Origin: Eledone cirrhosa
Lineage: Eukaryota
Length of the DNA: 64,000 nt
Assembly: GCA_964016885.1 (NCBI GenBank)
Contig: OZ024746.1
Span: 98,518,001-98,582,000 of the forward strand
Direction: 5' to 3'
Shown here: piece by piece, positions 10,290 to 34,515 of the stretch
Layout of the letters: each line of letters starts with the position of its first letter
How positions within the stretch are numbered: the stretch's first letter is position 1
The notes under the pieces: generated by a model
Database searches by the model: none
What the model was told of the DNA's origin: nothing
What the model saw: only the letters and a program-made list of their open reading frames with translations
Made by a program: the position numbers and the translations under genes

Positions 10290-11875
10290 GTAATACAGAA
10301 GACCTGACTTCCCACGTGTACAGGCCGAAGATGAAGCATATGTATAATATACACCACCCCACTCCTTCACCTACACACACATACATCTAGTGAAGCCTCC
10401 AACCCACACTGTAAAGTGGTTGTGATGGCAACCCGACAAAAAGCGCCCAGCCCACATTATAAAGTGGTTGTGATGGCAACCCGACAAAAAGCGCCCAGCC
10501 CACATTATAAAGTGGTTGTGTAGGTGTCACAACAAAAAACACCCAGTCCACACTGTAAAGTGGTCGCGTGGGTGTCACAACAAAAAACACCCAGTCCACA
10601 CTAAAGTGGTTGTGTAGGTGTCACAACAAAAAACACCCAGTCCACACTGTAAAGTTGTCATGTAGGTGTCACAACAAAAACCTCCCAGTCCACACTGTAA
10701 AGTTGTCATGTAGGTGTCAACAAAAATCTCCCAGTCCACACTGTAAAGTTGTCATGTAGGTGTCACAACAAAAACCTCCCAGTCCACACTGTAAAGTTGT
10801 CATGTAGGTGTCACAACAAAAACCTCCCAGTCCACACTGTAAAGTTGTCATGTAGGTGTCACAACAAAAACCTCCCAGTCCACACTGTAAAGTTGTCATG
10901 TAGGTGTCAACAAAAACCTCCCAGTCCACACTGTAAAGTTGTCATGTAGGTGTCACAACAAAAACCTCCCAGTCCACACTGTAAAGTTGTCATGTAGGTG
11001 TCACAACAAAAACCTCCCAGTCCACACTGTAAAGTTGTCATGTAGGTGTCAACAAAAACCTCCCAGTCCACACTGTAAAGTTGTCATGTAGGTGTCACAA
11101 CAAAAAACACCCAGTCCACACTGTAAAGTTGTCATGTAGGTGTCACAACAAAAAACACCCAGTCCACACTGTAAAGTTGTCATGTAGGTGTCACAACAAA
11201 AAACACCCAGTCCACACTGTAAAGTTGTCATGTAGGTGTCACAACAAAAAACACCCAGTCCACACTGTAAAGTTGTCATGTAGGTGTCACAACAAAAAAC
11301 ACCCAGTCTACACTGTAAAGTTGTCATGTAGGTGTCACAACAAAAACCTCCCAGTCCACACTGTAAAGTTGTCATGTAGGTGTCACAACAAAAAACACCC
11401 AGTCCACACTGTAAAGTTGTCATGTAGGTGTCACAACAAAAATCACCCAGTCTACACTGTAAAGTTGTCATGTAGGTGTCACAACAAAAACCTCCCAGTC
11501 CACACTGTAAAGTTGTCATGTAGGTGTCACTACAAAAACCTCCCAGTCCACACTGTAAAGTTGTCATGTAGGTGTCACAACAAAAACCTCCCAGTTCACA
11601 CTGTAAAGTTGTCATGTAGGTGTCACAACAAAAACCTCCCAGTCCACACTGTAAAGTTGTCATGTAGGTGTCACAACAAAAAACACCCAGTAGTCACTGT
11701 AAATGAGGTTGCCATTAGGAAGAGCATCCAGCTGTAGAAACCAAGCAAAATCAGTTCTGTATCAGCATGACACGATCACCTGACCTAGCGTTGCCCACAA
11801 CAGGATAACTCGTCTAACCCATGCTAGCATGGAAAAATTGATGCTAAATGGTGATGCTGATGATGATGGTGATAA
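10290..11875 (+). mobile_element. 5'-truncated RTE family-2 3' end with internally amplified minisatellite and (GAT)n tail
   Basis: 10290-10350 matches the ORF end of the RTE at 39318-40277; 11700-11875 matches its 3'UTR and tail. Confidence 0.7.
10400..11700. repeat. 48-bp minisatellite, ~27 copies (GTGTCACAACAAAAACCTCCCAGTCCACACTGTAAAGTTGTCATGTAG)
   Basis: 48-nt period read directly (e.g. 11101/11149); the 16-aa repeat ORFs are a by-product. Confidence 0.95.
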
Positions 11876-14149: not shown

Positions 14150-14918
14150 TAGTCAACAATGTGGAACTCAGGCTCTCTCACTCAGCCCTACAGAATATCT
14201 TCCCTCTGGCTCCAGTGATAACTGGCCCTTCTGGTCATGCCACCTTAACAGCGTGGAACTCAGGCCCTCTCACTCAGCCCTACAGAATATCTTCCCTCTG
14301 GCTCCAGTGATAACTGGCCCTTCTGGTCATGCCACCTTAACAGCGTGGAACTCAGGCCCTCTCACTCAGCCCTACAGAATATCTTCCCTCTGGCTCCAGT
14401 GATAACTGGCCCTTCTGGTCATGCCACCTTAACAGCGTGGAACTCAGGCTCTCTCACTCAGCCCTACAGAATATCTTCCCTCTGGCTCCAGTGATGACTG
14501 GCCCATCTGGTCATGCCACCTTAACAGCGTGGAACTCAGGCCCTCTCACTCAGCCCTACAGAATATCTTCCCTCTGGCTCCAGTGATGACTGGCCCATCT
14601 GGTCATGCCACCTTAACAGCGTGGAACTCAGGCCCTCTCACTCAGCCCTACAGAATATCATCCCCCTGGCCCTTCTGGTCCTGCCTGAATCACTTCCGAG
14701 CAGTTGTTGGTCGCTGAGGAGCCAAACTTCAGAAATGGGGGTAAGCCACCGATGATGATTCCATTCCAACTACCAATGCAGACAATTACAAACTATGGAG
14801 CACCTACCTTCTAGTTTGCTCCAGTCTTGAAGATTCCTGCACAATTAATGACCTGGAAACCTTAATACCTCCAGCAAGGCTCTGTGTGCAATACTGGATG
14901 GGTGTGAAGAAGAAGAAA
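14150..14918 (+). mobile_element. Decayed non-LTR retrotransposon 3' end (RTEX/Ingi-like C-terminus) with (GAA)n tail
   Basis: Translates LPSGSSDNWPFWSCLNHFRAVVGR*GAKLQKWG...QTMEHL...CTINDL...YW with stops and frameshifts. Confidence 0.6.
14161..14660. repeat. 92-bp tandem repeat, ~5.4 copies, inside the LINE remnant
   Basis: Unit starts at 14161, 14253, 14345, 14437, 14529, 14621. Confidence 0.97.
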
Positions 14919-18338: not shown

Positions 18339-20785
18339 GGCAGCGGGACAGGCAGATAGTGTCTAATACCAAGGCATACCCTGGGGAAGAATGTACCCCA
18401 CAGCATAGGTTAGTTGTTAGTGATATCTCAGTAAGCAAGAGATGGAATGAGACATACAGGAAGGTGTGGAGAAGAAAGGTCTGGAAGCTAAAAGACCTTT
18501 CACTAAAATTCAAATTTAGGAAAGCCCTTCAAGATGTATATGACGAAAAGAAGACGATTTAGAGACGTATGACATAGATAATAACTGGAAGTTCTTACGT
18601 GACAACTTGCTGAAGGCTACTGATGAAACCTGTGGCTGGAGCAGAGCTCCAACCAGACAGAGAGTGACCTGGTGGTGGAACAGCAGTGTAGATAAGGCTA
18701 TTAGAGACAAAAGACTAGCATGGAAGGCTTGGAATAAGGGTGGGAGTAGGGAAGAATATACAGCCACTAAGAGAGAAGCTAGACGTCAGGTGTACTTAGC
18801 ACGCAGGGAGGCAGAGAGTAGGAGGTTTGCCAATGTTCTGCGACGGGAAGATCAGAGGCGTGCGGTGTTCCACATTGCAAGGCAGTGTGTCAATGCAAAT
18901 CAGGATGTTGTTGGTGATAAATGTGTCCGGGATGATGCGGTGTACTTAGTGTCACGAATGACCAGAAAAAAAAAAAAAAAAAAGGAGGCCTGGAAATGTC
19001 ATTATGAGAGACTGATGAATGTGGAGAACGAATGGGAGAGAGAGAAATTACCCTTGGTAGATCCGACAGAGGGACCAGCTATTGAGATTGACGAATATAG
19101 GGTCCAAGAGGCGATTAGGGAAATGAAAAATGGTAAGGCGGCCGGACCATCGGGAATAGTTGCTGAGATGCTGAAGGCATCAGGGGACGTAGGCACTAAA
19201 CTGGTTGCACGCATAATCAATCAGGCTATATATGGTGGTGTCATACCCAAAGACTGGTGCAGCAGTATTCTCATAAGTTGCTACAAAGGTAAAGGGGATG
19301 CTTTGGAGAGGAGCAATTATAGGGGTATAAAACTGATAGATCAGGTTATGAAAGTGGCAGAAAGGATTTTAGCACAACTAATTAGAGAAAGGGTCAAACT
19401 AGATGAGATGCAGTTTGGTTTTGTGCCTGGGAAGAGTACAACAGATGCCCTCTTCTTGGTGAGACAAATGCAAGAGAGGTTCTTAGAGAAAAATAAGCCA
19501 CTATACTTAGCCTTTGTTGACCTAGAGAAGGCCTTTGATAGGGTACCCCGATCTGTCATCTAGTGGTCCCTAAGGAAGCTAGGTGTTGAGGAATGGCTTG
19601 TAAGGACAGTGCAAACTTTGTACAGAGGTACTCTCAGTAAAGTCAGAGTAGGAATGGAGTTTAGTGAGGAATTCCAGATACAAGTAGGAGTACATCAGGG
19701 TTCGGTCCTCAGCCCGCTCTTGTTCATTATAGTCCTCCAAGCCATAACAGAGGAGTTTAAGACTGGCTGTCCATGGGAACTTCTCTATGCTGACAATCTG
19801 GTTCTTATAGCAGAATCAGTAGAGGAGCTAGAGAATAAATTCTGGCTATGGAAACAGCAGTTGGAAGCAAGAGGACTGAGAGTAAATCTAGCTAAGACAA
19901 AAGTGTTGATGAGTAGAAAAAAGGACAAAACCCTGATTCCGTCAGGGAAATGGCCATGTTCGATATGCAGAAAAGGAACTGGCATAAATTCTATAAAATG
20001 CACACAATGTAGGTCCTGGGTACACAAGAGATGTAGCGGGATAGCAGGCAAACTAACAGGTAGGGAGAAATATGTATGCAGTAGATGTACAGGGAAATTA
20101 GACAGTAGAAGTCGCACTGATAGACACATTTTTCAAATGCGAGAGGGCGCTATAGAAGTGGTGGATAGCTTCCGGTACCTAGGAGATCAGATTAGCATGG
20201 GAGGAGGGTGTTCCGAGGCCATAGTATCTAGAATAAGGACGGGTTGGAAGAAGTTTAGGGAGCTGCTTCCTCTGTTGACGAAGAAGGGTTTCTCCCTGCG
20301 TACGAAAGGCCGGTTGTATGATGCCTGTGTGAGGAGCGCGATGCTGCATGTAGTGAGACATGGGCAGCTACCGCAGAAGATATGCGACGGCTGGAGAGAA
20401 ATGAGGCAAGCATGCTCCGTTGGATGTGCAGTGTAAATGTGCGTGAACGACCCAGCATAAATGTGTTGAGAGAGAAACTGTGTCTGAGAGGGATAGAATG
20501 TAGTGTACGGAGAGGAGACTGAGGTGGTATGGACATGTGATGCGCATGGAGGATGACCGATGGGTGAAGAAGTGCCAGGAAATGCCAGTTGAAGGAAGAC
20601 GTAGTAGAGGTAGACCACGAAAAACATGGGCGGAGGTGGTGAGAACAGACCTCAGATCATTGAAGCTCACGGTGGAGATGACGAGGGACCGTGACGAGTG
20701 GAGAGATGCTGTGCTGAATAAGACCCGTCCCACCCTTGCAAGCAGGGAAAAGCGGACGTAAAATGATGATGATGATGATGATGAT
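18339..20785 (+). mobile_element. 5'-truncated RTE-clade LINE (end of AP endonuclease, reverse transcriptase, PHD-like Cys/His finger, RTE C-terminus, (ATG)n tail); inactive
   Basis: QHRLVVSD; QFGFVPGKSTTDA, FVDLEKAFDRV, GVHQGSVLSPLLF, YADN; LRWYGHVMRM and RGRPRKTW; in-frame stop at 19561 and several frameshifts. Confidence 0.95.
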
Positions 20786-21820
20786 ATATATTATATTATA
20801 TATATATATTATATTATATATATATATTATATTATATATATATATTATTATATATATATATTATATTATATATATATATTATATTATATTATATATATAT
20901 ATTATATTATATATATATATTATATTATATTATATATATATATTATATTATATATATATATTATATTTATATATATATATTATATTTATATATATATATT
21001 ATATTATATATATATATTATATTATATATATATATTATATATATATATTATATTATATATTATATATTATATTATATATATATATATTATATTATATATT
21101 ATATATTATATTATATATATATATATATATTATATATATATATTATATATATATATTATATTATATATATATATATATATTATATATTATATTATATATA
21201 TATATATTATATATATATTATATATTATATTATATATATTATATATATATTATATATTATATTATATATATATATATATATTATATATATATATATTATG
21301 TATATTATATATATATTATATATTATATTATATATATATATATATATATTATATATATTATATATTATATTATGTATATTATATATATATATATTATATT
21401 ATATATATATATATTATATATACATATATATATTATATATTATATTATATATATATATATATATTATATATATATATATTATATATTATATTATGTATAT
21501 TATATATATATATATTATATTATATATATTATATATATATATTATATATATATATATATTATATATATATATATTATATATATATATTATATATATATAT
21601 ATTATATATATATATTATATTATATATATTATATTATATATATTATATATATATATATTATATTATATATATTATATATATATATTATATTATATATATA
21701 TATATATAATATAATATATAATATATATATATATATATATAATATATATATATATAATATATAATATATATATATAATATATATATATAATATATATATA
21801 TAATATATATATATAATATA

Positions 21821-22254
21821 TCCACACCGCCCCTTTCAATGTACAGTTATGTTGGTCCTACAACATCCAGGCCGAAACAAATGAGATCGTGTAGGTGTCA
21901 CGACAAAAAAACACACAGTCCACGCTGTAAATGTGGCCGTGTAGGTAACACGGTAAAAACCTCCCAGCCCCACACTATAAATGTGGTTGGTGTTAGGAAG
22001 GGCATCCAGCTGTAGAAAACCCGCCAGACAGTCCACGCTGTAATGTGGCCGTGTAGGCAACACGGTAAAAACCTCCCAGCCCCACACTGTAAATGTGGTT
22101 GGTGTTAGGAAGGGCATCCAACTATAGAAAACCCGCCAGACAGTCCTATGCGAGCAAGACAACCACTCTTGCCTCAAGTGGGAAAACCCCCGTCCAAACC
22201 CATGCAAGCGTGGAACACGGACGCTAAACCTGATGATGATGATGATGATGATGA
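21821..22254 (+). mobile_element. RTE-tailed non-autonomous retroposon with internal ~115-bp duplication and (GAT)n tail
   Basis: GGTTGGTGTTAGGAAGGGCATCCAGCTGTAG motif and CCCATGCAAGCGTGGAA...GATGATGAT end shared with RTE tails; sister copy at 25531-25759. Confidence 0.8.
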
Positions 22255-22286
<32 letters not shown>

Positions 22287-22354
22287 TATATAATATATAT
22301 ATATAATATATATATATATATATTATATATTATATATTATATATATATATATAT

Positions 22355-22429
<75 letters not shown>

Positions 22430-22555
22430 ATATATATATATAATATATATATATATATAATATATATATATAATATATATATATATATATAATATATATA
22501 TATAATATATATATATATAATATATATATAATATATATATATATATAATATATAT

Positions 22556-22633
<78 letters not shown>

Positions 22634-22635
22634 AT

Positions 22636-22680
<45 letters not shown>

Positions 22681-22742
22681 TATATATAATATATATAATA
22701 TATATATTATATATATATATATATATAATATATATATATATA

Positions 22743-22795
<53 letters not shown>

Positions 22796-22861
22796 TATAT
22801 AATATATATATATATAATATATAATATATATATATTATATATATATATATATAATATATAT

Positions 22862-22914
<53 letters not shown>

Positions 22915-22963
22915 ATAATATATATTATAATATATATATATATATATATATAATATATATATT

Positions 22964-23006
<43 letters not shown>

Positions 23007-23030
23007 TATATATATATAATATATATATAT

Positions 23031-23065
<35 letters not shown>

Positions 23066-23102
23066 ATATATATATAATATATATATATAATATATATATA
23101 AT

Positions 23103-23192
<90 letters not shown>

Positions 23193-23225
23193 TATATATA
23201 ATATATATAAATATATATATATAAT

Positions 23226-23295
<70 letters not shown>

Positions 23296-23297
23296 AT

Positions 23298-23365
<68 letters not shown>

Positions 23366-23402
23366 ATATATATATATATTATATATATATATATTATATA
23401 TA

Positions 23403-23435
<33 letters not shown>

Positions 23436-23574
23436 AATATATATATATATATAATATATATTATATATATATATATAATATATATAATATATATATATAT
23501 ATATATAATATATATATATATAATATATATATATATATAATATATATATATAATATATAATATATAATATATAT

Positions 23575-23606
<32 letters not shown>

Positions 23607-23612
23607 ATATAT

Positions 23613-23655
<43 letters not shown>

Positions 23656-23757
23656 TATATATAATATATATATATATATATAATATATATATATATATAT
23701 AATATATATAATATATATATATATATAATATATATAATATATATATATATATTATAT

Positions 23758-23791
<34 letters not shown>

Positions 23792-23810
23792 ATATATATA
23801 TATATAATAT

Positions 23811-23884
<74 letters not shown>

Positions 23885-23996
23885 ATATATATATATATAT
23901 ATAATATATATATATAATATATATATATATATAATATATATATAATATATATATATATAATATATTATATATATAATATATATATATATATAATAT

Positions 23997-24047
<51 letters not shown>

Positions 24048-24211
24048 TATATAATATATATATAATATATATATATATAATATATTATATATATATATAT
24101 ATAATATATATATATATAATATATATATATATTATATTATATATATATATATATATGTATATATTATATATATATATATATTTATATATATATTTATATA
24201 TATATATATAT

Positions 24212-24243
<32 letters not shown>

Positions 24244-24315
24244 ATATATAATATATTATATATATATATTATATATATATATTATATATATATTTATATA
24301 TAATATATTATATAT

Positions 24316-24362
<47 letters not shown>

Positions 24363-24406
24363 TATATATATATATATATTATATATATATTTATATATAA
24401 TATATT

Positions 24407-24453
<47 letters not shown>

Positions 24454-24538
24454 TATATATATATATATATTATATATATATTTATATATATATATATATT
24501 ATATATATATATATATTATATATATATTTATATATATA

Positions 24539-24581
<43 letters not shown>

Positions 24582-24588
24582 ATATATT

Positions 24589-24637
<49 letters not shown>

Positions 24638-24751
24638 TATATATATATATATATTATATATATATTTATATATATATATATATTATATATATATATATAT
24701 TATATATATATTTATATATATATATATATTATATATATATTTATATATATA

Positions 24752-24798
<47 letters not shown>

Positions 24799-25530
24799 GA
24801 ATATACTATTTATATATATGAGGCGGTGCCCCAGCATGGCCTCAGCCGGATGGCTGAAACAGGTAAGAGTAAATATATATATATATAATATACTATTTAT
24901 ATATATATAATATACTATTTATATATATGTATATATATATAGAATATACTATTTATATATATGTATATATATATAATATACTATTTATATATATGTATGT
25001 ATATATAATATACTATTTATATATATGTATGTATATATAATATACTATTTATATATATGTATATATATATAATATACTATTTATATATATATATATATAT
25101 ATATAATATACTATTTATATATATATGTATATATATATAATATACTATTTATATATATATGTATATATATATAATATACTATTTATATATATATGTATAT
25201 ATATATAATATACTCTTTATATATATATGTATATATATATAATATACTCTTTATATATATATGTATATATATATATAATATACTATTTATATATATGTAT
25301 ATATATATATAATATACTATTTATATATATGTATATATATATATAATATACTATTTATATATATGTATATATATATATAATATACTATTTATATATATGT
25401 ATATATATATATAATATACTATTTATATATATGTATATATATATATAATATACTATTTATATATATGTATATATATATAATATACTATTTATATATATGT
25501 ATATATATATAATATACTATTTATATATAT

Positions 25531-25759
25531 CACACAGTCCACGCTGTAATGTGGCCGTGTAGGCAACACGGTAAAAACCTCCCAGACCCTCACTGTAAAT
25601 ATGGTTGGTGTTAGGAAGGGCATCCAACTGTAGAAAACCTGCCAGACAGTCCTATGCGAGCAAGACAATCACTCTTGCCTCAAGTGGGACTACCCCCGTC
25701 CAAACCCATGCAAGCGTGGAACACGGACGTTAAACGTTGATGATGATGATGATGATGAT
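25531..25759 (+). mobile_element. RTE-tailed non-autonomous retroposon, 5'-truncated
   Basis: Closely similar to 22028-22254. Confidence 0.8.
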
Positions 25760-25943
25760 ATAATATAATATATATATGTATATATATATAATATAATATA
25801 TATATGTGTATATATATATATAATATATATGTGTATATATATAATATATATGTGTATATATATAATATATATATGTATATATATATATAATATACTATAT
25901 ATATGTGTATATATAATATAATATAATATATGTGTATGTATAA

Positions 25944-25993
<50 letters not shown>

Positions 25994-26075
25994 GTATTTA
26001 ACATATATATATATAATATATATATATGTATATATATATATATGTATATATATATAATATGTATATATATATATG

Positions 26076-26132
<57 letters not shown>

Positions 26133-26180
26133 GTATATATAGATATAATATGTATATATATATATGTATATATAGATATA

Positions 26181-26216
<36 letters not shown>

Positions 26217-26289
26217 ACATTATGAAGAGAGAAGAAACATTTAGATATAATTAGTAATAAAATGTATCATACCGAAACTGTTCCTAAAT

Positions 26290-26377
26290 TCCTCGACTAC
26301 GTAGTTTCGTGGCATAAACAAAAACAATATATCAAAGATATAGAGTCCCTGCGAGGTCTGCCGACTTATCAAGAGGA
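26290..26377 (-). ncRNA. Type I hammerhead ribozyme, U3-A8 variant (copy 1)
   Basis: Minus strand: UCCUC-UUGAUAA-GU(C)GGCA...UGCCAC-GAAA-CUACGUAG-UC^GAGGA; helices I, II and III all pair; predicted cleavage between 26295 and 26294. Confidence 0.8.
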
Positions 26378-26880
26378 TACCTCATTTTACTAGTCTCAAG
26401 AACGCGTCTACACGACGTGAGAAAGAATCCCAAAAGGCGGAGGGGGAGATAGTCACGCGATATAACGGTCGAGAAACAGAGCTAAGCCTCTTATAACCAC
26501 GAAGAAAATACCACGGAGGCGGAGGGGGTATTCATATCGAGGCCGTAGAAGAGGTAGTGAAGAAGGCGAGAAGTATGAGTAATGGAAGCTTTCCAGTTGT
26601 CCCCACACTTCAAAGATTGCTCGACCAGAGGGAGTTATTAATATATTTAGAAACACACAGATACATGCGGACACACACATATATACATGAATGCATCCGC
26701 ACCCAACTGTGAGTTAAGGGTGCCAACTTCACCGATGTTGCTCAATGAATGACTGGGACAGACCAATTCAGTTTGAACTAGACTGAACCAGTATCAGAGT
26801 TAAAAATACATTATGAAGAGAGAAGAAACATTTAGATATAATTAGTAATAAAATGTATCATACCTAAACTGTTCCTAAAT

Positions 26881-26968
26881 TCCTCGACTACGTAGTTTCG
26901 TGGCATAAACAAAAACAATATATCAAAGATATAGAGTCCCTGCGAGGTCTGCCGACTTATCAAGAGGA
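26881..26968 (-). ncRNA. Type I hammerhead ribozyme, U3-A8 variant (copy 2)
   Basis: Same motif as copy 1, offset +591. Confidence 0.8.
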
Positions 26969-27471
26969 TACCTCATTTTACTAGTCTCAAGAACGCGTCT
27001 ACACGACGTGAGAAAGAATCCCAAAAGGCGGAGGGGGAGATAGTCACGCGATATAACAGTCGAGAAACAGAGCTAAGCCTCTTATAACCACGAAGAAAAT
27101 ACCACGGAGGCGGAGGGGGTATTCATATCGAGGCCGTAGAAGAGGTAGTGAAGAAGGCGAGAAGTATGAGTAATGGAAGCTTTCCAGTTGTCCCCACACT
27201 TCAAAGATTGCTCGACCAGAGGGAGTTATTAATATATTTAGAAACACACAGATACATGCGGACACACACATATATACATGAATGCATCCGCACCCAACTG
27301 TGAGTTAAGGGTGCCAACTTCACCGATGTTGCTCAATGAATGACTGGGACAGACCAATTCAGTTTGAACTAGACTGAACCAGTATCAGAGTTAAAAATAC
27401 ATTATGAAGAGAGAAGAAACATTTAGATATAATTAGTAATAAAATGTATCATACCTAAACTGTTCCTAAAT

Positions 27472-27559
27472 TCCTCGACTACGTAGTTTCGTGGCATAAA
27501 CAAAAACAATATATCAAAGATATAGAGTCCCTGCGAGGTCTGCCGACTTATCAAGAGGA
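27472..27559 (-). ncRNA. Type I hammerhead ribozyme, U3-A8 variant (copy 3)
   Basis: Same motif as copy 1, offset +1182. Confidence 0.8.
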
Positions 27560-27998
27560 TACCTCATTTTACTAGTCTCAAGAACGCGTCTACACGACGT
27601 GAGAAAGAATCCCAAAAGGCGGAGGGGGAGATAGTCACGCGATATAACGGTCGAGAAACAGAGCTAAGCCTCTTATAACCACGAAGAAAATACCACGGAG
27701 GCGGAGGGGGTATTCATATCGAGGCCGTAGAAGAGGTAGTGAAGAAGGCGAGAAGTATGAGTAATGGAAGCTTTCCAGTTGTCCCCACACTTCAAAGATT
27801 GCTCGACCAGAGGGAGTTATTAATATATTTAGAAACACACAGATACATGCGGACACACACATATATACATGAATGCATCCGCACCCAACTGTGAGTTAAG
27901 GGTGCCAACTTCACCGATGTTGCTCAATGAATGACTGGGACAGACCAATTCAGTTTGAACTAGACTGAACCAGTATCAGAGTTAAATATATAGATATA

Positions 27999-28039
<41 letters not shown>

Positions 28040-28050
28040 GATATAATATG

Positions 28051-28083
<33 letters not shown>

Positions 28084-28271
28084 GTATATATATATATATT
28101 ATGTATATGTATATATATATATATATTATGTATATGTATATATATATATATATTATATATATGTATATATATATATATATTATATATATGTATATATATA
28201 TATATATTATATATATGTATATATATATATATATTATATATATGTATATATATATATATATTATATATATG

Positions 28272-28328
<57 letters not shown>

Positions 28329-28333
28329 TATAT

Positions 28334-28367
<34 letters not shown>

Positions 28368-29221
28368 ATTATATATATGTATATATATATATATATTATA
28401 TATATGTATATATATATTATATATGTATATAATATATATATATATATATTATATATATGTATATATATATTATATATGTATATAATATATATATATATAT
28501 ATAATATATTATATATGTATATAATATATATATATATATATATAATATATATATATTATATATGTATATAATATATATATATATATATAATATATTATAT
28601 ATGTATATAATATATATATATATACATAATATATTATATATGTATATAATATATATATATATACATAATATATTATATATGTATATAATATATATATATA
28701 TATACATAATATATTATATATGTATATAATATATATATATATATACATAATATATTATATATGTATATAATATATATATATATATACATAATATATTATA
28801 TATGTATATAATATATATATATATATATAATATATTATATATGTATATAATATATATATATATATATAATATATTATATATGTATATGTATATATATAAT
28901 ATATGTATATGTATATATATAATATATATATATGTATATATATATGTATATATATATATATATATATAATATGTATATATTTGTAATTAATTAAAATGGA
29001 GTGTATTTCATTAGAAATCAGTCATGAAAGGGTTAAATGGTGTAATATCAGGAGTGTTATGAGTAGAAACTGTTAAATGGTGTTATGAGTAAGCAAAATT
29101 TTCAAGTATCGTCCTTGAAAAAAATTAATTCCTAGACACAGCTTACAGACTATATAGACTCTATCTGATTATTGAATGCATCAAGCACACTGCACAAAAC
29201 ATTACATATGGTAGATATAAT

Positions 29222-29434
29222 TGTTTCTACTTTTTGGCACAAGGCCAGCAATTCACCAGTGCATTACTGGTACTTTATTTTATCGACCCTGTAAGGATGA
29301 AAGGCAAAGTTAACCTCGGTGGGATTTGAACTCAGAATGGCAAGGGCCGTAACTCTATGCTTTGACCCATAGAGTTACAGCCCTTGCCATTCTGAGTTCA
29401 AATCCCACCGAGGTTAACTTTGCCTTTCATCCTT
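29222..29434 (-). mobile_element. SINE A insertion with fold-back inverted duplication and 16-bp TSD
   Basis: ATATGGTAGATATAAT at 29206-29221 and 29435-29450; 68-bp inverted arms. Confidence 0.88.
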
Positions 29435-31939: not shown

Positions 31940-33714
31940 TTAACCCTTTAGTGTTCAAACCGGCCCAAACCGGCTAGAATTCTGTTCTTCTTTCTGTTGA
32001 AACTGGCTGTAACTGGTCGCTCAAACTGATGTTAACCCTTTAGTGTTCAAACCGGCCAAAACCGGCTAGAATTCTGTTCTTCTTTCTGTTGAAACTGGCT
32101 GTAACTGGTCGCTCAAACTGATGTTAACCATTTAGTGTTCAAACCGGCCCAAACCGGCTAGAATTCTGTTCTTCTTTCTGTTGAAACTGGCTGTAACTGG
32201 TCGCTCAAACTTATGTTAACCCTTTAGTGTTCAAACCGGCCCAAACCGGCTAGAATTCTGTTCTTCTTTCTGTTGAAACTGGCTGTAACTGGTCGCTCAA
32301 ACTGATGTTAACCCTTTAGTGTTCAAACCGGCCCAAACCGGCTAGAATTCTGTTCTTCTTTCTGTTGAAACTGGCTGTAACTGGTCGCTCAAACTGATGT
32401 TAACCCTTTAGTGTTCAAACCGGCCAAAACCGGCTAGAATTCTGTTCTTCTTTCTGTTGAAACTGGCTGTAACTGGTCGCTCAAACTGATGTTAACCCTT
32501 TAGTGTTCAAACCGGCCAAAACCGGCTAGAATTCTGTTCTTCTTTCTGTTGAAACTGGCTGTAACTGGTCGCTCAAACTGATGTTAACCCTTTAGTGTTC
32601 AAACCGGCCAAAACCGGCTAGAATTCTGTTCTTCTTTCTGTTGAAACTGGCTGTAACTGGTCGCTCAAACTGATGTTAACCCTTTAGTGTTCAAACCGGC
32701 CCAAACCGGCTAGAATTCTGTTCTTCTTTCTGTTGAAACTGGCTGTAACTGGTCGCTCAAACTGATGTTAACCCTTTAGTGTTCAAACCGGCCCAAACCG
32801 GCTAGAATTCTGTTCTTCTTTCTGTTGAAACTGGCTGTAACTGGTCGCTCAAACTGATGTTAACCCTTTAGTGTTCAAACCGGCCAAAACCGGCTAGAAT
32901 TCTGTTCTTCTTTCTGTTGAAACTGGCTGTAACTGGTCGCTCAAACTGATGTTAACCCTTTAGTGTTCAAACCGGCCAAAACCGGCTAGAATTCTGTTCT
33001 TTCTGTTGAAACTGGCTGTAACTGGTCGCTCAAACTGATGTTAACCCTTTAGTGTTCAAACCGGCCAAAACCGGCTAGAATTCTGTTCTTCTTTCTGTTG
33101 AAACTGGCTGTAACTGGTCGCTCAAACTGATGTTAACCCTCTAGTGTTCAAACCGGCCAAAACCGCTAGAATTCTGTTCTTCTTTCTGTTGAAACTGGCT
33201 GTAACTGGTCGCTCAAACTGATGTTAACCCTTTAGTGTTCAAACCGGCCCAAACCGGCTAGAATTCTGTTCTTCTTTCTGTTGAAACTGGCTGTAACTGG
33301 TCGCTCAAACTGATGTTAACCCTTTAGTGTTCAAACCGGCCCAAACCGGCTAGAATTCTGTTCTTCTTTCTGTTGAAACTGGCTGTAACTGGTCGCTCAA
33401 ACTGATGTTAACCCTTTAGTGTTCAAACCGGCCAAAACCGGCTAGAATTCTGTTCTTCTTTCTGTTGAAACTGGCTGTAACTGGTCGCTCAAACTGATGT
33501 TAACCCTTTAGTGTTCAAACCGGCCCAAACCGGCTAGAATTCTGTTCATCTTTCTGTTGAAACTGGCTGTAACTGGTCGCTCAAACTGATGTTAAGGTAT
33601 TGTTCTCAAAATAAATACTTTCAAGATCTCATAGATTCGATATTATGTGAAGTAAAGCATTTACCATGAAAATATAATAGTATATATAGAGTAATGTGAA
33701 TGCTATAGGGTTAA
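31940..33714 (+). mobile_element. piggyBac-type MITE family 1 whose first 92 bp are amplified 18-fold
   Basis: TTAA-CCCTTTAG start, 92-bp period to 33595, then normal MITE remainder ending TATAGGG-TTAA. Confidence 0.92.
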
Positions 33715-34317: not shown

Positions 34318-34515
34318 TGTTTGGAGCTTGTCCGGCTGTGTCCCCTTCACACTGGTCACCGTTGAGACCTCAGGCATCCTCAGACCCCATACTGCTGAGC
34401 TCCTCAGTAAAATCAGAATGTCAGCAGCCTGTCTGAAGAAGGAGCCCCATGAGGTGGGGTGGCTGTTGCAGCAGATGTGTGCTGGCCATTGTCTGCAAAA
34501 ATGCCTTTGTAGTTT
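34318..34515 (+). mobile_element. CRE-like LINE 3' remnant
   Basis: PFTLVTVETSGILRP motif, homologous to the minus-strand copies. Confidence 0.55.

Follow-up and report, generated by a model that had tools for sequence, protein, structure and literature searches.

The window analysed here is a stretch of 64 kb from the genome of Eledone cirrhosa. It carries, at 26215-27986 on the minus strand (the RNA sense), a retrozyme insertion made of three head-to-tail units. Identity at a period of 591 spans the whole interval, i.e. 591 + 591 + 590 bases, which gives unit 1 (26215-26805), unit 2 (26806-27396) and unit 3 (27397-27986). As claimed in an earlier note on this DNA, only two substitutions are found in the trimer, a G at 26274 in unit 1 and an A at 27058 in unit 2. 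The 3' end of the insertion (26215) is one of the two fixed termini of the family described below, site A; at its 5' end (27986), unit 3 terminates at a site-A position rich in A and U, where microhomology likely made the junction with the TA target. The trimer is embedded in (TA)n-rich target tracts, 20784-26214 on the left, where other inserts interrupt it, and 27987-28980 on the right. Neither these tracts nor the fixed left end figured in the earlier note.

The longest stop-to-stop frame lying fully inside the repeat has 86 codons, so that a coding gene was rejected and the absence of a credible ORF, already claimed, stands. The repeat is non-coding and of low GC (0.38 in the 2-kb bin), with neither LTR nor PBS or PPT (the last two judged from the simple tandem layout), as in non-LTR retrozymes. 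It does not encode the reverse transcriptase (RT) and GIY-YIG endonuclease of an autonomous Penelope-like element (PLE) and is therefore non-autonomous.

Several other features are present in the window. A LINE-type reverse transcriptase at 18544-20433 (+), in two consecutive frames split by a stop (Pfam RVT_1, PHD-finger match), is not PLE-like. At 29313-29415, a near-perfect 100-bp palindrome corresponds to the two inverted ends of a SINE-like repeat, and its matches to Rfam miRNAs were sub-threshold. The other tandem arrays, at 1-2980 (27 bp x110), 10484-11703 (48 bp x26), 14161-14670 (92 bp x5.5) and 31940-33595 (an unrelated 92 bp x18), contain no hammerhead according to a type I scan of both strands.

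The hammerhead motif

That scan, which accepted C3-G8 or U3-A8 cores on both strands of the whole 64-kb window, returned four matches, of which three are the minus-strand units and the fourth, at 34383, is a loose one. The three motifs lie at 26290-26377, 26881-26968 and 27472-27559, with predicted cuts at 26295/26294, 26886/26885 and 27477/27476 (U3 at 26372, 26963 and 27554; C17 at 26295, 26886 and 27477). Each has a UUGAUAA (U3-A8) core, at 26372-26366 in the first, a 5-bp helix I, a bulged helix II with G10.1-C11.1, GAAA, a palindromic helix III and a GUC triplet. The elements of a type I hammerhead are thus all found (YUGANRA / GAAA / NUH, the 3-8 pair, G10.1-C11.1 and three helices, with 96% of cells paired), and the complete hammerhead motif attributed earlier to every minus-strand unit is confirmed, helices and triplet included. 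Rfam gave no hammerhead match at E<=1, in keeping with the prediction that a standard motif search would miss the variant core. The core is not new: U3-A8 is known from Schistosoma PLEs, as described in PMC4209133, and also occurs in several PLE families of the same genome.

The motif is strongly conserved among genomic copies, as expected in the earlier note. Its 44 bases are the same as in the window in 184 of 192 segments of young copies and, between the young and old subfamilies, 0/44 hammerhead columns differ versus 113/557 elsewhere (p 1.6e-4). In that comparison, the invariant stretches that follow it in length stop immediately before the two termini, A and B. The sequences being near-invariant, the helix covariation looked for across copies was not observed (no double-sided change in the 20 hammerhead pairs); five pairs elsewhere in the unit do show such a change. 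A search for C3-G8 relatives returned none.

Folding predictions indicate a highly structured RNA. Taken from cut to cut, the minus-strand monomer folds far better than its shuffles (z -6.9); the plus strand gave a z of -0.4. The hammerhead fold of the monomer is 4-11 kcal/mol above the predicted minimum. A nested double-hammerhead fold is 9.8 kcal/mol above the minimum and 9.3 kcal/mol better than two monomer folds, which supports, as far as modelling goes, the earlier suggestion that the palindromic helix III suits a dimeric hammerhead. In the predicted monomer fold, the 3' strand of helix I pairs with the pyrimidine tract that precedes site A; locked in that hairpin, it would protect a circle. 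Published tests call for caution, since PLE hammerheads are described as poor cleavers (PMC4209133), insertion of Poseidon in vitro did not need cleavage (PMC11167929) and eight of nine Xenopus retrozyme dimers were without cleavage (10.64898/2026.07.22.740005). By analogy with Poseidon (PMC11167929), cleavage may require the dimer and perhaps a PLE protein. On balance, we regard hammerhead cleavage in vivo as probable.

Copies, ends and candidate helper

Copies were searched for across the 3.0-Gb assembly. The unit sequence gave 675 candidate matches and, among the 40 that were scored, the full-length ones were 97-100% identical and spread over many chromosomes. The youth of the family, another earlier claim, is borne out by copies that are 99-100% identical; as near-identical arrays exist on many chromosomes, the trimer is not an assembly artefact, and a local satellite was likewise rejected, since the family to which the trimer belongs is dispersed. 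A subfamily of greater age, with 81% identity, gave 2,724 candidates, and subfamilies of 593 and 595 bp are intermediate (overall range 81-100%); a sequence pattern of the 593-bp subfamily had 282 matches. The hammerhead pattern itself had 6,169 exact matches against none for the reversed control, a count of motifs and not of insertions. The retrozyme-type nature proposed in the earlier note is supported by the tandem organisation, by the complete type I hammerhead in each unit and by the dispersed, mobile copies. The length of the unit, in turn, is not unusual: retrozyme units are reported to span 51-972 bp (10.64898/2026.07.22.740005).

The loci analysed (106, i.e. 71 young and 35 older) are a sample of the thousands present, partly picked for likeness to the window. 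Left out were overlapping fetches of one array, four bases at each alignment end and the second, near-duplicate copy of L134; L018, which has many indels, was omitted from the mutation spectra, and L052, L055, L151 and L086 from the tally of ends. At L134 (G000:C1:19619300-19624700), a near-identical pair of inverted insertions is separated by 2.5 kb, and the locus in its entirety has probably been duplicated locally.

Two fixed ends were recognised, both 3' relative to the ribozyme strand: A, at unit position 1, is 80 nt past the cut, and B, at unit position 427, is 245 nt past it. Both are AU-rich and preceded by a predicted long hairpin. In the window, the 80-nt segment from cut to A occupies 26215-26294 (and 26806-26885 and 27397-27476), the base of its hairpin, just before A, taking the 3' strand of helix I. 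Site B, with the second hairpin before it, falls at 26641, 27232 and 27823; a terminus in other family copies, it is internal in this trimer. Comparison within the family defines the 165-nt 'tail' between start sites A and B as 26641-26805.

The way these ends are combined is strict. The young loci comprise 38 head-to-head inverted insertions, 32 direct ones and one lying at a fetch edge. All but one of the inverted insertions pair A with B (37/38, the last having B and a near-A end), and none has A+A or B+B. The direct ones end at A (15) or at B (17), their other end being variable. Among the 35 older loci, A+B is found in 18 of 23 inversions and no inversion has two like ends. TA repeats adjoin 107 of the 110 young 3' ends. 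The 5' ends are ragged, only 2/103 lying within 3 nt of the cut site, and array sizes range from 0.5 to 7.6 units. A check for target-site duplications met degenerate (TA)n flanks, in which a flank motif is found on both sides, yet this motif is itself tandem. The window copy is of the A-type direct kind, and its neat trimeric form arises because its 5' end chanced to stop at the next site-A position, as in a few other copies.

A sequence mobilised by a PLE is expected to have a tail delimited by two fixed 3' termini, scattered 5' ends, an inverted arm and an AT-rich target, as the family does. An inverted truncated arm, an optional tail and microsatellite targets are given as the signature of these elements (PMC8557442; PMC3846280), and a mechanism demonstrated for them has the RT start at two internal sites, one on either side of a tail (PMC11167929); the template strand and the origin of inverted insertions were left open in PMC3846280. 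We consider PLE-type mobilisation of the family very probable.

The genome contains 10,597 GIY-YIG candidates; 48 loci, among 150 scored, were examined. They represent several PLE families with an RT, a C-terminal GIY-YIG and a C-x4-C-x2-C linker, the motif by which, following PMC8557442, their sequences are assigned to the Neptune type. In the ESM Atlas, the PLE protein has neighbours from mixed animal taxa. Hammerhead cores with U3 lie close to the 3' end in most of these families, and in several the core is U3-A8, so that this variant is the local norm. PLE family A has its ends 81 and 146 nt past its cut site, in TA, and its three inverted copies (3/3) all pair the short with the long end, as does one copy of family B. 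Family A is very young: its 131 scored copies show 98-100% identity across 300 aa of RT, and many frames of 775 codons are present.

The repeat and these PLEs nevertheless do not resemble each other in sequence. No alignment of the unit with the 48 PLE loci extended beyond simple repeats, which also leaves it without pLTR homology there. A likeness between its end motifs and those of family A was rejected as compositional, as it was not above that of shuffles (p 0.69 and 0.68). A search for a minimal-hammerhead PLE with the same palindromic helix III gave 11 matches, mostly deleted copies of the family or chance (2 for the control). The helper RT proposed in the earlier note is supported by the common end geometry, and the helper is likely a Neptune-type PLE of the same genome.

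Side observations were made at the PLE loci. Loci L091-L108 of G000 (e.g. L092:4809-7622, L091:1775-5062 and L094:4722-6629) include at least six TA-targeting families of Neptune type, each with its own minimal hammerhead and with U3-A8, U3-G8 or C3-G8 cores; that of family D has GCAA in place of the expected GAAA. An unrelated repeat family has hammerhead-like motifs of type I, with the canonical C3-G8 core, at L097:603 (-) and L098:8486 (+). Nested insertions were also seen: a young copy sits in a TA tract next to an old-subfamily copy, and others sit in TA tracts beside PLE ends (L030:2150-3240, L086:2285-3264 and the left flank of L043). Family copies and PLEs repeatedly use each other's TA flanks.

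Variant patterns and the template

Because the family is young, numerous and multimeric, a change that preceded reverse transcription can be told, in each array, by its presence in every unit, and one that arose in the course of copying or later by its presence in a single unit. Variants were called in the 71 young arrays (270 segments), on the ribozyme strand and against the commonest letter of each subfamily, and were polarised with two outgroups. There were 136 variants common to all covering units, 147 present in one unit and 15 in some units; both arms of inversions have the same haplotype. The two main classes have very different spectra. The 49 polarised array-wide changes include 26 A>G, 8 T>C and 2 C>T, and the 115 single-unit ones 3 A>G, 20 T>C, 21 C>T and 24 G>A (Fisher p 1e-13 for A>G, 26/49 versus 3/115); no polarity could be assigned at 27 array-wide and 31 single-unit sites. 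The difference remains when only changes unique to one array are considered (A>G 17/42 versus 3/136, p 8e-10). In L124, which has 7.6 units counting both arms, A>G accounts for 8 of 10 array-wide changes, five of them unique; there, site 514 has G in the outgroups too and is therefore unpolarisable. A two-site marker of L124 occurs eight times in its own locus and once elsewhere, on another subfamily background. In L167, all four unique changes are A>G. The old subfamily showed no clear array-wide bias (A>G 5/28).

Changes in an RNA that precede copying recur at every turn, which would make the template one unit that was gone round repeatedly. It was probably a monomeric, circular, ADAR-edited RNA, copied by rolling-circle reverse transcription; the array-wide haplotypes and the A>G spectrum make a monomer or circle, in line with the unit-length circular RNA of the earlier note, a distinctly probable template. 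The same data bear on a different proposal, in which an uncleaved, linear, multimeric read-through transcript is copied by the PLE, no circle is made and the hammerhead is a pLTR relic or a protein-binding structure. In vitro, Poseidon accepts RNA that has not been processed (PMC11167929), the predicted minimum-energy fold is not the hammerhead one and the cut site is ignored by 5' ends, all of which would suit such a transcript. Edits or errors in a multimer, however, would land in single units, yet A>G is array-wide; new variants are uniform over as many as 7.6 units in L124, which needs a monomer bottleneck followed by re-expansion; and the hammerhead columns are invariant between subfamilies. 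A linear multimeric template is accordingly improbable.

Re-expansion might also have taken place in DNA, monomers being inserted by PLE-type TPRT and arrays growing later by unequal crossover, slippage or gene conversion, like minisatellites. Such a model was put forward in 10.64898/2026.07.22.740005, and the 15 partly shared variants are of the kind it calls for: in L122, L029 and L141 they are common to neighbouring units only. The single-unit variants outnumber them by 147 to 15, arrays begin at A or B and finish at random 5' points, and the arms of inversions are both multimeric with one common haplotype, none of which speaks for growth in DNA. In addition, the single-unit changes of young arrays are strand-biased in the direction predicted for RT errors made at each turn (T>C 20 versus A>G 3, p 0.016), an excess that would fit U-dG errors. 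Growth of whole arrays in DNA is thus quite improbable, and the partly shared variants suggest some later duplication or conversion of units within arrays copied from a circle. Variants mirrored between the two arms were seen in L123.

Least probable of all is a jump of the RT, precisely and repeatedly, from the 5' to the 3' end of a linear monomer cut by the hammerhead, with no covalent circle. It would yield the same array-wide haplotypes, and genome data alone do not separate it from copying of a circle. Only one indel was found in 202 crossings of the cut site, though, 5' ends do not pile up there, and the animal retrozymes studied to date are described as accumulating as circles (PMC7229834). 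Four runs of unrecorded kind were also compared: X3 and X5 each gave one closed-loop contig of unit length plus 30 (621 and 620 nt), a form to which tandem DNA leads just as an RNA circle does, and X6 has G at two candidate sites, contigs being prone to drop rare variants; neither result is counted as evidence.

An excess of A>G on the edited strand is the trace left by A-to-I editing, and the excess seen here, strand-specific and clustered, is of that type. An ADAR origin of the array-wide A>G changes is reasonably likely. Not all the expected features of editing are visible. Depletion of 5' G at A>G sites was not significant (3/19, p 0.41; the 0/19 obtained unpolarised did not survive polarising), 5' U being present at 11/19, and no significant excess of local pairing was detected at these sites (p 0.40). 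Circles copied through the PLE route might have acquired A>G otherwise, i.e. by RNA-to-RNA copying, polymerase II errors, transcription-linked mutation in master copies or selection for pairing (A-U to G-U). Were pairing selected for, C>T (G-C to G-U) ought to be retained as well, yet C>T, the second commonest single-unit change (21/115), is down to 2/49 array-wide; A>G changes are clustered in single arrays, such as L124 (five unique) and L167 (4/4); and the coding strands of PLEs, taken as control, are not biased in this way (14:5 and 9:5, p 0.63 and 1.0). A source of A>G other than ADAR is therefore rather unlikely, while being the least improbable of the alternatives considered.

The window trimer carries a candidate fixed edit, to judge from sequence comparison. 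At unit site 135 (26349, and also 26940 and 27531, on the minus strand), all three units have G, a letter found in 23 arrays from three subfamilies, whereas A prevails among the arrays and is what the outgroup subfamilies carry. Changes at sites 125, 135, 332, 395 and 540 (332 and 540 lie at 26546 and 26754 in the window) are common to two or three subfamilies, and this recurrence of the same A/G sites could be due to recombination or old polymorphism. Unit positions 67 and 565 (26281 and 26779 in the window) are A/G polymorphic in several subfamilies, with a majority letter that differs among them; they could be heavily edited sites at which A is kept in source copies, or else reflect recombination.

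Proposed mechanism and known systems

Taken together, these results are best read as the insertion of an abundant, non-coding hammerhead retrozyme, mobilised in trans by a Neptune-type PLE and copied from an A-to-I edited, unit-length circle, a reading to which we give a probability of about 0.72. The minus strand would be transcribed through an array. Adjacent hammerheads are predicted to pair via the palindromic helix III and to excise a 591-nt monomer, which ligation would turn into a circle; there, the downstream hairpin would hold the helix I strand and block re-cutting. ADAR would then deaminate some adenosines of the structured RNA, as suggested by the strand-specific A>G. The GIY-YIG endonuclease of a PLE would nick (TA)n and its RT would start at internal AU-rich site A or B, circle up to about seven turns and detach at random; this step draws on the observed TA flanks, the fixed termini and the scatter of 5' ends. 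Both target strands would prime, one with A and the other with B, to give a head-to-head inverted insertion; here the pairing is observed and the twin priming is what it suggests.

The circle-template and PLE-helper model for animal retrozymes is, in the published accounts, a proposal with little direct evidence (PMC7229834; 10.64898/2026.07.22.740005). The arrays provide a genome-only test of rolling-circle reverse transcription, of the template strand and of the pairing of start sites, and a candidate enzyme can be named, a PLE with many open reading frames. The data therefore bear on the circle and editing proposals of PMC7229834 and on the template-strand question of PMC3846280. If the A>G changes are ADAR edits, they reveal a route from RNA editing to heritable DNA change. 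In its broadest form, the interpretation is that an animal genome is rewritten from ADAR-edited hammerhead circles via rolling-circle, twin-primed Penelope reverse transcription, with each insertion the multi-turn fossil of one RNA, editing a main source of the family's heritable variation, the ribozyme-sense strand the PLE template and the start sites used one per target strand; we rate its chances as about even. The length of the unit and the U3-A8 core were already known; what seems new is the array-wide A>G pattern. The literature searched yielded no account of the family, of strict A+B pairing, of A>G that is array-wide and strand-specific or of edited copies of a retrozyme; Repbase/Dfam, subscription journals and bioRxiv supplements may hold the family.

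Among known systems, the closest in sequence organisation are the animal non-LTR retrozymes as described by Cervera & de la Pena 2020 (PMC7229834) and Li, Clavereau & Pollet 2026 (bioRxiv 10.64898/2026.07.22.740005). They too have non-coding tandem units with one type I hammerhead each, a GC content below 45%, thousands of copies ranging from monomers to multimers and a palindromic helix III suited to dimeric cleavage, and the length of the present unit is inside their 51-972 bp. A circle template and a PLE helper were proposed for them as well, circle-templated tandem cDNA and RNA editing, the latter among the possible causes of heterogeneity, being both mentioned in PMC7229834. Unlike non-LTR retrozymes as described in these papers, the family combines a U3-A8 core and a branched helix II region of 57 nt with insertion into (TA)n, a pair of fixed termini of the PLE type, strict A+B inversions and array-wide strand-specific A>G.

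In its insertions, the family is like Neptune-clade PLEs (Craig et al. 2021, PMC8557442; Arkhipova et al. 2013, PMC3846280; Frangieh et al. 2024, PMC11167929), with which it has in common (TA)n targets, partial tandems, an inverted 5'-truncated arm, an optional tail at one end, a hammerhead upstream of two internal RT start sites and U3-A8 cores. The distance from cut to first end is nearly the same, 80 nt versus 81 nt in local PLE family A. In contrast to these elements, the family has no ORF and no alignable homology to the 48 PLE loci; its tail is of 165 nt versus the 30-40 given for Neptune-clade PLEs (65 in local family A), and it has a palindromic helix III of canonical length with GUC where local PLEs have a minimal motif with GUA.

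The dimeric hammerhead satellites of newt, axolotl and schistosome also have a short palindromic helix III with the dimer fold favoured; they are long satellites, whereas the family forms dispersed short arrays (0.5-7.6 units) with a variant core. Hepatitis delta virus, whose RNA is edited by ADAR, and viroid-like circular RNAs are comparable in being highly paired, ribozyme-bearing circles, as is proposed here. Unlike them, the RNA of the family is genome-encoded and returns to DNA, with no sign of RNA-to-RNA replication or of a protein. To conclude, by its sequence the family fits the definition of a non-LTR retrozyme as worded in PMC7229834, and it appears to behave as a non-autonomous PLE.
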